This document shows, one piece after another, positions 45,294 through 46,804 of a DNA stretch of 64,000 nucleotides (within the stretch, counting starts at the first letter, position 1; every line of letters starts with the position of its first letter). The position numbers and the translations under genes are program-made. This stretch comes from a phage. The stretch is from the sequence record PZ445517.1. The stretch is one strand, 5' to 3'. The notes below the pieces were generated by a model that saw nothing but the letters and a program-made list of their open reading frames with translations, made no database searches and was not told where the DNA came from.

Positions 45294-45779
45294 TTATTTT
45301 ATGTAATATTTATTTAAAAACTTTCTAGCTTGAGTATGGCTAACATTTATAGCGTTTGCATAATTTTTAATAAAACCTCGTTCATCCATATTAAAATTTT
45401 CTAATATTTTTAATCGTCTAATTATCTCATCTTGGCTTAAGGTACTTGCATTATTTTTAGAAATTTTTTCTAAAGACTGCACTGAGTGTTTTCGACCATT
45501 AAAATTAAAATTTTTAGGTTTTGGAGGAAATCTATCATTTAGTCTCGCATCTTTTGTATTTTGATTATTAGTTGCGCAATATATGTTATTTAATGAGTAT
45601 GGTCCTTTATCACCAAAACGACACATACAGTATTCATGACCCTTTCTTCCACGCTTATCATAATTTCCTGTTGATTTCCACCAATTTAACCACTCATCAA
45701 AAGTTAAATTCCATTCAATGTTTCTACGTATAGCAGAATTCCGCTGAGAAATATATTTTGCATAATCTTCTTTCATCAC
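45294..45779 (-). CDS. hypothetical protein inside tRNA cluster with Cys/His-rich nuclease-like segment and C-terminal HTH (possible mobile-element endonuclease)
   Basis: 161 aa; RRNIEWNLTFDEWLNWW...GHEYCMCRFGDKGPYSLNNIYCATNNQN; C-terminal VSHTQARKFLNKY resembles the HTH tail of the HNH protein at 46172..46804. Confidence 0.5.
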   Translation of the reverse strand: MMKEDYAKYISQRNSAIRRNIEWNLTFDEWLNWWKSTGNYDKRGRKGHEYCMCRFGDKGPYSLNNIYCATNNQNTKDARLNDRFPPKPKNFNFNGRKHSVQSLEKISKNNASTLSQDEIIRRLKILENFNMDERGFIKNYANAINVSHTQARKFLNKYYIK

Positions 45780-45823
45780 AAATTTCTCTACTTATTACAT
45801 GCACTAAGCTAAATCAGCAAAAC

Positions 45824-45913
45824 TGGCGGAGGCGATAGGATTTGAACCTATGAGTCGCCGGAGCGACTGCCGGTTTTCAAGACCGGTGCATTAAACCACT
45901 CTGCCACGCCTCC
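45824..45913 (-). tRNA. tRNA-Ser (anticodon UGA), long variable arm
   Basis: Acceptor GGAGGCG/CGCCTCC, anticodon stem-loop CCGGT-CTTGAAA-ACCGG, variable-arm hairpin, T-arm ATAGG-TTCAAAT-CCTAT. Confidence 0.8.
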
Positions 45914-45915
45914 AG

Positions 45916-45989
45916 TCTCCATACAAGGATTTGAACCTTGGACCTCCTGATCCCAAATCAGGCGCTCTACCAAACTGAGCTACACGGAG
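45916..45989 (-). tRNA. tRNA-Pro (anticodon UGG), no encoded CCA; 2 nt from tRNA-Ser (dimeric precursor arrangement)
   Basis: D-arm GCTC-AGTTTGGTA-GAGC, anticodon stem-loop CCTGA-TTTGGGA-TCAGG, T-arm CAAGG-TTCAAAT-CCTTG. Confidence 0.75.
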
Positions 45990-45999
45990 TAAATTAAAT

Positions 46000-46073
46000 T
46001 GGAGCGGATAATGAGAATCGAACTCACATCATCAGATTGGAAGTCTGAGGTAATGCCATTATACGATATCCGC
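46000..46073 (-). tRNA. tRNA-Gly (anticodon UCC)
   Basis: Acceptor GCGGATA/TATCCGC, anticodon stem-loop TCAGA-CTTCCAA-TCTGA, CCA encoded. Confidence 0.75.
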
Positions 46074-46078
46074 AAATT

Positions 46079-46165
46079 TGGTGCGAGAAGTGGGACTCGA
46101 ACCCACAAGGAAATCATTCCGCAGCATTTTAAGTGCTGTGCCTTTACCAATTTGACCATTCTCGC
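46079..46165 (-). tRNA. tRNA-Leu (anticodon UAA), long variable arm
   Basis: Acceptor GCGAGAA/TTCTCGC, anticodon stem-loop CAGCA-CTTAAAA-TGCTG, T-arm GTGGG-TTCGAGT-CCCAC, CCA encoded. Confidence 0.8.
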
Positions 46166-46171
46166 TCTATA

Positions 46172-46804
46172 TTATTTATTACGTGAAAAAGATTGTTCTA
46201 TCAATTCTGGACACTTTCGTTCTATCCATTTTCTAGCTTTTTGTGGGCTTATACCTATTATTTTAGCAGCTTTACTAACCCATCCAAATTTAGAATAATC
46301 GATTTTAACTAATTCTTCGTAAATTTCATCAGTTAAAATCTTTTCATTAATATTTACCAGTAAATGATATAATTTATTATCATTAGCAATTTTAATGAAT
46401 CTTTTATAGTTTCCGCCTTTACTTAAACCTAATGAAGTAATTGCAGATGATATAGTAGCCGAATTTAATAATGCGTTTAAAATTTCTTCATCACTAACAT
46501 TATAACGCTTTTTATTATTTTTAATATTTTTACCAGCAAAAGTATCAGTTTGCGAATGGCAATTTGGACATAATAATCTTAAATTTGATTTAAGATGATT
46601 TTTATTATTTCCATCAATATGGTCTAATTGCAGAACAATATGCTTATTTTGCCATTTTGAAATTTTACAAATTGCACACTCATATGGAAAAATATTTTCT
46701 TTTATTATTTTGTCTTTCAGCTTTCCTGTACTAAAATTTGGATGTTTTCCTTCAAAAATTTCAGCTAATTTAGTATCCATAATATAATTCCCAATTATTA
46801 ACAA
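46172..46804 (-). CDS. HNH endonuclease with C-terminal DNA-binding (HTH) domain, directly upstream of tRNA cluster
   Basis: LDHIDGNNKNHLKSNLRLLCPNCH canonical HNH motif preceded by CxxC; 210 aa. Confidence 0.75.
   Translation of the reverse strand: MLIIGNYIMDTKLAEIFEGKHPNFSTGKLKDKIIKENIFPYECAICKISKWQNKHIVLQLDHIDGNNKNHLKSNLRLLCPNCHSQTDTFAGKNIKNNKKRYNVSDEEILNALLNSATISSAITSLGLSKGGNYKRFIKIANDNKLYHLLVNINEKILTDEIYEELVKIDYSKFGWVSKAAKIIGISPQKARKWIERKCPELIEQSFSRNK

Follow-up and report, generated by a model that had tools for sequence, protein, structure and literature searches.

The tRNA region of the T-even phages is non-essential and highly mosaic, and homing has been shown there for T4 SegB, a GIY-YIG endonuclease that cuts the DNA of phages without segB, preferentially within the tRNA-Asn gene, and converts the region (PMC2330249). 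In the T4 x T2L crosses of the same study, the T2L allele carrying an ORF named trna.1 was almost completely excluded (0.4% inheritance; PMC2330249). A SegB-like GIY-YIG enzyme is encoded in the same tRNA cluster by Ec_O157kw, RB51 and AR1-type phages. Both enzymes are free-standing and their genes displace tRNA genes, at the Tyr/Asn position in the case of T4 SegB and at the Pro position in the case of the SegB-like gene. In another phage family (Demerecviridae), T5 encodes F-TflIV (hegA), a site-specific HNH endonuclease whose gene directly follows a tRNA gene within a tRNA cluster. The I-HmuI / HNH_3-type homing endonucleases of phages, which are often nickases and often free-standing in phage genomes, combine a small beta-beta-alpha nuclease at the N-terminus with modular NUMOD/HTH repeats that bind DNA. 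The restriction enzyme PacI (PDB 3LDY/3M7K) has a beta-beta-alpha core as well and is placed in His-Me finger 'group 20' (Jablonska et al. 2017). It is a homodimer with no separate DNA-binding tail, and it is active without the general-base His through the use of a Tyr in its omega-loop (PMC5714182, PMC4081073). T4 Srd ('decoy of sigma70') is reported, in the part of PMC7430671 that cites Qi et al. 2015, to stimulate RNase E and not to act as a DNase.

Here we describe two genes, ORF161 and ORF210, in the tRNA cluster of Escherichia phage T4_ev240 (Tequatrovirus). We think it fairly probable that both are free-standing (intron-less) homing endonuclease genes, each of which has replaced one tRNA gene of the T-even operon. 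The earlier literature searched on the two genes in Tequatrovirus goes no further than 'ORFs of unknown function' in T2L, where trna.1 is the equivalent of ORF161.

The interrupted tRNA cluster and its HNH gene

The window is the whole stretch of DNA that was analysed (64 kb). Its tRNA cluster, as determined with ARAGORN and Rfam, contains 8 tRNAs, all on the minus strand, and is interrupted by two minus-strand ORFs (Table 1). ORF161 has the CAU-tRNA on one side (9 nt away) and tRNA-Ser on the other, and ORF210 ends 6 nt upstream of tRNA-Leu. A Thr or Gln tRNA is missing from the whole 64-kb window. A group I intron location is ruled out for both genes, as Rfam returned tRNAs only and the junctions are tRNA remnants. 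In Lutter and T2, an indel ORF of phrog_3355, to which no function is assigned, adjoins tRNA-Arg; this ORF is missing from the window.

Table 1. Positions of the two genes, their domains, the tRNA remnants and the tRNA blocks in the window
Feature	Position	Strand	Residues or length	Remarks
ORF161, putative free-standing homing endonuclease gene	45294..45776	-	160 aa from ATG 45776	161 aa from GTG 45779
N-terminal PacI-like beta-beta-alpha domain of ORF161	45540..45773	-	3-80	core 50-80
NUMOD3-like segment and four-helix HTH tail of ORF161	45303..45503	-	93-159	
ORF210, free-standing HNH endonuclease gene	46172..46780	-	202 aa from ATG 46780	
HNH (His-Me finger) core and Cys4 zinc site of ORF210	46541..46684	-	~33-80	CAIC ... 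LDHIDGNNKNHLKSNLRLLCPNCH
C-terminal HTH tail of ORF210	46211..46315	-	~156-190	IDYSKFGWVSKAAKIIGISPQKARKWIERK
tRNA-Gln remnant	46785..46793	-	first 9 nt	TGGGAATTA; lies before the ORF210 start codon; T4 alignment
tRNA-Thr remnant	45807..45818	-	first 12 nt	GCTGATTTAGCT; upstream of ORF161, then decayed sequence
tRNA-Arg, Asn, Tyr, Met/Ile(CAU)	44955..45284	-		block downstream of ORF161; ARAGORN, Rfam
tRNA-Ser, Pro, Gly, Leu	45824..46165	-		block separating both endonuclease genes, co-directional; ARAGORN, Rfam

The earlier note on this DNA had placed two nuclease-like genes at the tRNA cluster, and both ORFs were recovered at those positions, on the minus strand, with slight corrections to their starts. 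ORF210 most likely begins at ATG 46780, given that the PHROG alignment opens at residue 9 and that 202 aa is the length of the RefSeq relatives; the TTG at 46804 that was given earlier adds 8 codons (the 210-aa form) and is the less likely start. Comparison with homolog P0001 indicates that ORF161 most likely begins at the ATG and encodes 160 aa. The description of ORF210 as a canonical HNH endonuclease encoded immediately upstream of tRNA-Leu holds, as C35/C38, D53-H54, N66 and C71/C74-H75 are invariant in an alignment of 30 homologs. The D-H general base, the structural Asn and the terminal H/N metal ligand are all present on the beta-beta-alpha core, which is flanked by a CxxC...CxxC zinc site (C35, C38, C71 and C74), and the predicted model (pLDDT 89.7) has strands at residues 51-54 and 67-70 followed by a helix. 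ORF210 matches phrog_14736 (6e-124) and, at 17.2 bits (E 0.0057), stays below the Pfam HNH (PF01844) gathering threshold of 21.4; a precomputed PF01844 match is carried by many of its homologs. Judged by these residues, ORF210 is a canonical zinc-stabilised HNH endonuclease with a C-terminal HTH, and it is very probably of the homing type. Of the characterised proteins, T5 F-TflIV, from a different phage family, is most closely related to it, with an identity of only about 35% (34.7% across 84% of the protein). The HNH gene by itself is ordinary and already has a RefSeq annotation.

The N-terminal domain of ORF161

ORF161 is annotated as 'hypothetical protein' in most records of its relatives and matches phrog_16521 'unknown function' (E 2e-54). 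Searches of Pfam and NCBIfam with ORF161 gave nothing usable; a match to DotZ (E 0.022) was dismissed, and a match to eL37 in a PDB search with the single sequence (E 0.09) was spurious. The protein is confidently predicted as a two-domain fold (pLDDT 87) in which the N-domain is joined to the tail by a disordered linker. The N-domain belongs to a family of at least 7,245 clusters (50% identity) for which Pfam and NCBIfam have no model. The conserved feature of this family, aligned here as 177 domains, is R-x2-D-x-G-x-Y-x3-N-x8-N, represented in the ORF161 core by the invariant residues R54, D57, G59, Y61, N65 and N74.

The beta-hairpin and alpha-helix of the His-Me finger fold are found in the N-domain. 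Strand 1 does not end in the catalytic His; all 177 domains have Arg there. Both His-Me finger Asn positions are invariant, with N74 on the helix at the metal-ligand position and N65 before strand 2. Their spacings from position 54 are 20 and 11, respectively, and the corresponding spacings in the ORF210 HNH are one residue longer (21 and 12). The Cys/His-rich segment to which the earlier note drew attention is present in this copy, but it is not a functional motif: the columns of the three ORF161 Cys residues are C/V, C/A/S and C/I, and because they vary across the family the segment is not a conserved zinc site. A zinc finger is ruled out on the same ground.

Half of the family members scanned (42 of 84) match phrog_3118 'HNH endonuclease', some over the whole domain (best 5.6e-11), and one matches phrog_1035, endonuclease VII; none of the 84 matches Pfam HNH_3 or HNH. 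With hhalign, neither the N-domain family nor the intermediate 'DRID' family matched the HNH family of ORF210. A PDB search with the profile of the N-domain family returned nothing, and a Foldseek search of the PDB with ORF161 gave no significant match, the best probability being that of PacI. Direct alignment of the N-domain family with PacI gave E 0.31, and the link becomes significant through an intermediate phage family (95.6% and 94.1% in the hhalign profile chain). No further copies of the N-domain were found within the 64-kb window.

The PacI sequence was confirmed against the PDB, and the residue roles were taken from two reviews (PMC5714182, PMC4081073). R93, Y100, N104 and N113 of PacI correspond to R54, Y61, N65 and N74 of ORF161 with identical spacing (7, 11 and 20), so that in both proteins an Arg stands in place of the general-base His and is accompanied by an omega-loop Tyr and two Asn. 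Within the PacI-group motif D-R...G-Y...N...N-x2-K, ORF161 has the R, the G-x-Y and both N, the trailing Lys is unconserved, and the metal-ligand Asp92 of PacI aligns with C53 in a non-acidic C/A/S column; the family has an invariant Asp at R+3 (D57). PacI also has two Cys4 zinc sites that flank the core, of which ORF161 has neither, and ORF161 differs further from the restriction enzyme in its NUMOD3-like/HTH tail and its mobile-gene distribution. In sequence and in the predicted model, the N-domain thus resembles a PacI-type beta-beta-alpha (His-Me finger) domain that lacks both zinc and the catalytic histidine. By analogy with PacI, the invariant omega-loop Tyr is likely the general base or nucleophile, and the invariant Asn on the helix is likely a metal ligand.

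The same R-Y-N-N motif (SLERFDNNVGYIKGNVIAVKKKYN) occurs in the N-terminal ~100 aa of T4 Srd. Srd matches the ORF161 N-domain model at E 2e-6 and the intermediate PacI-like phage family at E 3.6e-11 in hmmsearch, with 95.9% for the latter in hhalign. Srd differs from ORF161 in its C-terminal half, has no NUMOD/HTH tail and is encoded outside the tRNA cluster. The partner domains within the N-domain family are I-TevI_DNA-bd, NUMOD3, NUMOD1 and a sigma70_r4 HTH, some members have tandem N-domains, and others are encoded antisense between capsid-module genes, adjoining an HNH_3 gene. In its domain composition, this architecture is typical of homing endonucleases. The design of ORF161 is that of the I-HmuI / HNH_3 type, from which it differs in lacking both the Pfam HNH_3/HNH match and the catalytic His.

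Related tails and replaced tRNA genes

The related HTH tails that had been proposed for the two proteins are borne out by profile comparison. Alignments of the ORF161 subfamily tail and the ORF210 tail match over 35 columns (hhalign 96.8%, E 2.8e-10), ORF210 matches the PHROG of ORF161 (2e-4), and residues 172-200 of the 210-aa form of ORF210 have weak Pfam HTH matches. Direct BLASTP of ORF161 against ORF210 is not significant, and the relationship is seen by profiles only; judged by these profiles, the two tails are homologous. The SegB-like GIY-YIG protein also has a NUMOD3 and HTH tail, which is homologous to that of ORF161 (BLASTP 8e-15) and, more weakly, to that of ORF210 (2e-4). The SegB-like protein itself matches NUMOD3 at threshold, and ORF161 has no direct Pfam NUMOD3 match. 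The catalytic domain of SegB and the SegB-like enzyme is GIY-YIG, in contrast to the beta-beta-alpha domain of ORF161, and the tail of T4 SegB is unrelated to that of ORF161. The cluster therefore presents one tail on three catalytic chassis (GIY-YIG, canonical HNH and PacI-like) and one GIY-YIG domain on two tails. In their tails, ORF161 and the SegB-like enzyme form the closest pair, and their genes lie on either side of one tRNA-Ser gene; the two proteins might thus share an anchoring site, from which they would cut in opposite directions.

Each ORF precisely replaces one tRNA gene. In alignment with T4 (L005), positions 46169-46784 of the window stand in for 3461-3522, which is the body of tRNA-Gln, and in alignment with L002, positions 45285-45802 stand in for 2789-2849, which is the 3' 60 nt of tRNA-Thr, so that ORF210 has taken the place of tRNA-Gln and ORF161 that of tRNA-Thr. 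The junctions are nucleotide-precise and recur in many genomes. The HNH gene (at least 95% identity) is present in 64 records, as against 446 with an intact tRNA-Gln site, and ORF161 in 26, as against 440 with an intact Met-Thr-Ser site. Each gene is thus found in about 5-13% of Tequatrovirus records, the alternative allele being the intact tRNA gene. The presence and absence of the two genes is sporadic and independent, and all combinations are found: both in the window and in Lutter, ORF161 only in WL-3 and T2, the HNH gene only in Ec_O157kw, and neither in T4. Both genes are therefore present in some genomes and absent at the homologous site of close relatives, a distribution like that of homing genes. 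The earlier note had taken both for nuclease-like genes. ORF161 has a nuclease-type (beta-beta-alpha, PacI-like) fold with an HTH tail and neither gene is conserved in all relatives, so that neither of the outcomes named as refuting the note has arisen.

It had further been suggested that these genes would represent the replacement of segB by another endonuclease family. The T4 segB slot is a different one, between tRNA-Ile(CAU) and tRNA-Arg in place of tRNA-Tyr and tRNA-Asn, and it is tRNA-Gln and tRNA-Thr that have been replaced here. In Salmonella phage pSe_SNUABM_01 the HNH gene and ORF161 occur together, and the segB slot is filled by a 666-nt gene whose annotation reads 'homing endonuclease'. 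As segB, ORF161 and the HNH gene occupy different slots and can coexist, this is not a like-for-like replacement; the endonuclease genes are independent cassettes in separate slots.

ORF161 is 96-100% identical in the 26 phage records, and homologs at 34-58% identity occur in five or more genera. In all four of the other Straboviridae genera checked, full-length homologs lie within tRNA clusters. Both ORFs are under purifying selection. Four intact copies of ORF161 give a pN/pS of 0.08-0.15, and their N-domain contains one nonsynonymous site; ORF210 has no nonsynonymous differences. Two 2-nt deletions put ORF161 out of frame in the T2 records examined, a state consistent with the invasion and later decay that homing genes go through. 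The allele in the T4 x T2L cross was of the T2 type.

Proposed homing and its alternatives

By analogy with the characterised enzymes, we infer DNA cleavage, a cleavage site and homing for ORF161 and ORF210. When a carrier phage shares a host cell with a relative whose tRNA gene is intact (tRNA-Thr for ORF161, tRNA-Gln for ORF210), the tail would anchor the protein on the tRNA-cluster DNA and the nuclease domain would nick or cut within or beside the target tRNA gene. Recombinational repair from the endonuclease-bearing genome would then copy the gene in, with loss of the tRNA, and the carrier genome, having lost its own target to the insertion, would be immune. ORF161 is, on balance, probably an active nuclease. 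Against the homing explanation we count that ORF161 lacks the catalytic His, an acidic counterpart of PacI Asp92 and both PacI Cys4 zinc sites, that T4 Srd has the same kind of domain with a reported RNase E role, and that the T2L allele with trna.1 was the one excluded in crosses, although that copy is out of frame in the T2 records.

Several of these points would also suit a catalytically inert ORF161, a PacI-like derivative that has kept binding functions only and whose gene is spread by ordinary recombination or as a passenger of neighbouring endonuclease genes. Such a protein could possibly bind DNA through its Seg-type tail, for example in regulating the operon or in shielding it from SegB-type cleavage by co-infecting phages; because a GIY-YIG enzyme encoded at this locus has the same tail, the two proteins could conceivably compete for a single binding site. 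Alternatively, it could possibly be an Srd-like modulator of an RNA-processing enzyme on the tRNA precursor, and the transcript that contains ORF161 is heavily RNase-processed. The loss of the general-base His and the preceding Asp, and a domain in common with Srd, whose role is reported as RNase E stimulation in the cited part of PMC7430671, agree with an inert protein. However, PacI is active without the His (PMC5714182, PMC4081073), and the Tyr, Arg and both Asn are invariant in the 177 domains. The family partners are nuclease-associated DNA-binding modules, tandem N-domains occur, and the precise tRNA replacement, presence/absence and decay are the pattern of homing genes. We regard an inert ORF161 as rather unlikely.

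It is improbable that neither gene spreads itself and that both are optional accessory genes of a hypervariable region, made patchy by ordinary T-even recombination and deletion. The mosaic, non-essential nature of the tRNA region (PMC2330249) and the presence of other indel ORFs beside the cluster, such as the phrog_3355 ORF of Lutter and T2, would allow this, but ORF210 is a canonical HNH protein with a characterised site-specific relative in F-TflIV, both proteins have DNA-targeting tails, exactly one tRNA gene is removed per insertion at precise recurring junctions, and SegB homing has been shown in the same locus (PMC2330249). That ORF161 is a chance ORF or dead remnant between tRNAs, as its mostly 'hypothetical protein' annotations and the frameshifted T2 copy might suggest, is effectively refuted by its conservation, with low pN/pS in four intact copies, a confident two-domain fold, and homologs across genera in a very large family.

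Homing by both genes, the explanation we prefer, may have a wider reading, which we put forward tentatively. The N-domain of ORF161 could represent a large, unmodelled catalytic class of phage homing endonucleases, of the zinc-less and His-less PacI type with an R-D-G-Y-N-N active site, in which T4 Srd is a domesticated relative and one Straboviridae subfamily has specialised on tRNA genes, turning tRNA-bearing alleles into endonuclease-bearing ones. The Srd link suggests that the mechanism of Srd should be re-examined. If ORF161 is active, a function would be available for a gene labelled 'unknown' since the 2008 work on the T2L tRNA region, and PHROG 16521 and a metagenomic family of thousands of unannotated clusters would gain an annotation. 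The rare PacI-type His-less HNH chemistry, known from a few restriction enzymes and giant-virus proteins, would then be found in a common mobile element of phages as well. The locus is also a natural domain-swap series, which helps in understanding the acquisition of new targets by modular endonucleases and in engineering it. With one or two tRNA genes lost per endonuclease gene, the variation in tRNA content among near-identical T-even phages is partly explained.

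Organization of the tRNA cluster

Escherichia phage T4_ev240 (LR597657.1, Tequatrovirus) matches the region at 100% identity, and hundreds of T-even phages do so at 95-98%. ARAGORN and Rfam identified eight minus-strand tRNA genes; no introns or RNA families other than tRNA were found by Rfam in the cluster region. As the earlier note had described, two minus-strand open reading frames lie between or adjoining the tRNAs. ORF161 stands between tRNA-Ser, on its upstream side, and the CAU-tRNA, 9 nt downstream, and a gap of 6 nt separates the end of ORF210 from the downstream tRNA-Leu. 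ORF210 likely starts at ATG 46780 (202 aa) because the PHROG profile alignment begins at residue 9 of the long form and near homologs start at the same methionine; the latter also makes ATG 45776 the likely start of ORF161 (160 aa). Residue numbers follow the 202-aa form for ORF210 and, for ORF161, the 161-aa form that starts at GTG.

Positions of the features in the window
Feature	Position	Strand	Basis
rnaC/rnaD-like stretch	44606-44951		
Terminator-like hairpin	44615-44638	-	
tRNA-Arg, Asn, Tyr, Met/Ile(CAU)	44955-45284	-	ARAGORN, Rfam
Segment in place of the tRNA-Thr 3' 60 nt	45285-45802		comparison with Ec_O157kw
ORF161	45294-45776	-	
tRNA-Thr 5' end, 12 nt	45807-45818		
tRNA-Ser, Pro, Gly, Leu	45824-46165	-	ARAGORN, Rfam
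Segment in place of the tRNA-Gln body	46169-46784		comparison with T4
tRNA-Gln 5' end, 9 nt	46785-46793		

What is left of tRNA-Gln stands directly before the HNH start codon of ORF210, and the remnant of tRNA-Thr is followed by decayed sequence. Neither a Thr nor a Gln tRNA was found in the window by ARAGORN/tRNA search. Downstream of tRNA-Arg, a stretch that shares ~89% identity with the T4 rnaC/rnaD region (species 1 and 2 RNA) is closed by a strong terminator-like hairpin; it has no Rfam match. A 114-116-aa ORF (phrog_3355, unknown function) is found directly 3' of tRNA-Arg in phages Lutter (L003:2451-2795) and T2 (L004:3248-3598) and is absent at window 44951-44955, and therefore represents a further indel cassette at the cluster edge.

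ORF210 and its HNH relatives

ORF210 is an ordinary HNH gene that has been annotated already. It matches phrog_14736 ('HNH endonuclease') from end to end (E 6e-124), and C35, C38, H54, N66, C71, C74 and H75 are invariant across 30 homologs, which bears out its earlier description as a canonical HNH protein. The predicted fold is confident (pLDDT 89.7). The Pfam HNH score of 17.2 bits is just under the threshold of 21.4, and many of the homologs carry PF01844. The nearest characterised relative (34.7% identity) is T5 hegA/F-TflIV, whose gene lies directly 3' of tRNA-Ile2 inside the T5 tRNA cluster. Family membership and distribution make the homing-endonuclease reading of ORF210 well supported. 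Additionally, several distant relatives of the ORF210 HNH in unrelated phages overlap or abut annotated tRNA genes (T5-like Salmonella phages and Gordonia phage GodonK; records e.g. NC_111751.1, MK620899.1), which hints that HNH genes and tRNAs are associated more widely.

Fold and family of ORF161

Judged from its sequence and model, ORF161 is a putative endonuclease of beta-beta-alpha type that lacks the catalytic His and carries a Seg-type tail; its family is large and without annotation. Neither Pfam nor NCBIfam gives a hit, and the protein is a member of phrog_16521 ('unknown function'). The AlphaFold2 model (pLDDT 87) shows two domains, with a linker of low confidence between them at residues ~81-99. 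The first consists of two helices followed by strands 50-54 and 66-70 and helix 71-80, and the second is a four-helix bundle (100-158). Foldseek gave PacI the top probability, with no significant E-value. Among 177 family domains W30, R54, N65 and N74 are invariant and D57, G59 and Y61 almost so; the cysteines are unconserved.

PacI is without a catalytic His and employs a Tyr in the omega-loop instead, and its metal ligands are one Asp and one Asn (PMC5714182, PMC4081073). The PacI sequence, checked against the PDB, contains ...GVDRSDSFEGYSPQNARLACFICNRIK..., in which the distances from R93 to Y100, N104 and N113 (7, 11 and 20) are identical to those from R54 to Y61, N65 and N74 in ORF161. 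However, PacI has Cys4 zinc sites whereas ORF161 has none, and the column of PacI Asp92 is C53 in ORF161 and C, A or S across the family, whose invariant Asp is at R+3 (D57). Directly compared, the ORF161 family and PacI align in the same register at a non-significant E of 0.31. An intermediate family of phage proteins annotated 'endonuclease', which share the motif SLDRID..KGY..GNV..S.RAN.IK, aligns over the whole domain with the ORF161 N-domain family (hhalign 95.6%, E 1.1e-8) and over the whole protein with PacI (hhalign 94.1%, E 1.3e-7). Half of 84 ORF161-family members match phrog_3118 'HNH endonuclease' (best 5.6e-11), some over the full domain; comparison of the N-domain family with the ORF210 HNH family gave no match.

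An exhaustive profile search with the N-domain recovered 7,245 clusters (50% identity) at E <= 1e-3 and 5,249 at E <= 1e-10. Its partner modules include I-TevI_DNA-bd, NUMOD3, NUMOD1, sigma70_r4 and further HTH modules, and some members have a tandem pair of N-domains. In small metagenomic phage contigs, the two members examined lie antisense amid capsid-module genes (L015:2865-3260 and 4920-5366; L019:2239-2664), and in L015 a free-standing HNH_3 gene is on the same strand two genes from a member. Homing endonucleases have this same architecture and behave in this way in genomes. 'PacI-like' free-standing HNH genes, rare in Skunavirus, have been named there via HHpred, and in the available text of that study two I-HmuI-like enzymes are the only ones with reported exclusion activity (PMC12724721). 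Literature searches turned up no account of either ORF161 or ORF210 as such.

Tails, cassettes and proposed homing

A 202-aa GIY-YIG protein of phage Ec_O157kw (annotated segB; Pfam matches GIY-YIG and NUMOD3) has a C-terminal tail that is matched by ORF161 residues 93-157 with a BLASTP E of 8e-15 and, more weakly (2e-4), by the ORF210 tail. The likeness between the ORF161 and ORF210 tails proposed in the earlier note was recovered with tail profiles (96.8%, E 2.8e-10, 35 columns). Within this cluster, a single tail type is therefore shared by three catalytic chassis. The GIY-YIG domains of T4 SegB and the SegB-like protein are nearly the same (97/117 residues equal) but their tails are unrelated, so that two different tails go with a single GIY-YIG domain; the T4 SegB and ORF161 tails show no relationship. 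Many Tequatrovirus 'segB' genes are chimeras relative to T4 SegB (Ec_O157kw L002:2967-3575 versus T4 segB L005:2254-2919), with a NUMOD3 + HTH tail homologous to that of ORF161 and a position in the tRNA-Pro slot, not the Tyr/Asn slot.

Order of tRNA genes and endonuclease genes (in brackets) in the direction of transcription
Phage	Order
T4	Gln Leu Gly Pro Ser Thr Ile [SegB] Arg
T2	Gln Leu Gly Pro Ser [ORF161, frameshifted] Met Tyr Asn Arg
WL-3	Gln Leu Gly Pro Ser [ORF161] Met Tyr Asn Arg
Window and Lutter	[HNH] Leu Gly Pro Ser [ORF161] Met Tyr Asn Arg
Ec_O157kw	[HNH] Leu Gly [SegB-like] Ser Thr Met Tyr Asn Arg
pSe_SNUABM_01	[HNH] Leu Gly Pro Ser [ORF161] Met [666-nt 'homing endonuclease' in segB slot] Arg

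All combinations of the cassettes occur and they are therefore independent, each at a price of one or two tRNA genes. Salmonella phage pSe_SNUABM_01 (NC_054937 69080-73162) has three endonuclease genes and only six tRNAs in a single cluster. It had been suggested that another endonuclease family replaced segB here, which is right only in part: segB is indeed missing from the window and two other endonuclease genes are in the same cluster, but their slots differ from that of segB, which, as in pSe_SNUABM_01, can hold an endonuclease gene alongside them. In the phage collection, the Gln site is intact in 446 records versus 64 with the HNH gene, and the Met-Thr-Ser site in 440 versus 26 with ORF161. 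Intact copies of both genes are under purifying selection, with a pN/pS of 0.08-0.15 for ORF161 and, counting differing copies, 0 nonsynonymous versus 4-6 synonymous differences for ORF210. In the T2 copy of ORF161 (LC348380; L004:2360-2905; the T2L 'trna.1' ORF described in 2008), two deletions of 2 nt each fall within the first 32 codons; what is annotated there, a 133-aa ORF, is therefore a remnant that has lost its N-terminus.

Jiaodavirus KpV477, Gelderlandvirus S16 and Aeromonas phages 31.2 and phiAS5 each encode a full-length ORF161 homolog (34-57% identity) within a tRNA cluster, with a 3' end that abuts or overlaps the next tRNA. At three loci of other Straboviridae genera the overlap is 10 nt (L006:1492-1965, L007:1411-1992) or 21 nt (L009:1492-2034), so the stop codon would be lost on 5' processing of the tRNA. 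A comparable damping of expression was proposed for segB (PMC2330249).

SegB cuts tRNA genes at their 3' ends, preferring tRNA-Asn, and homes into T2L (Brok-Volchanskaya et al. 2008, PMC2330249); the T2L ORFs of the tRNA region were excluded to 0.4% of progeny (PMC2330249). The best reading is that ORF161 and ORF210 are both free-standing homing-endonuclease genes with targets in the tRNA genes they replaced, in which case a carrier genome would be immune once its own target gene had been replaced. The main rival holds that ORF161 is a non-catalytic binder, and its predicted active site does differ from canonical HNH and PacI alike. Such a binder gains plausibility because T4 Srd (srd, T4 NC_000866 11039-11785, L020:2040-2786, outside the window), a 'decoy of sigma70' reported to stimulate RNase E (PMC7430671), has the same kind of domain. 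The N-terminal ~100 aa of Srd have a PacI-type R-Y-N-N motif (SLERFDNNVGYIKGNVIAVKKKYN); they match the ORF161 N-domain model at E 2e-6 and, at E 3.6e-11 (hhalign 95.9%), the family of PacI-like phage proteins annotated 'endonuclease'; mention of this homology was not found in the literature examined. The putative homing role of ORF161 draws on its fold, motif, architecture and distribution and on the analogy with SegB, and the protein merits a bench test.
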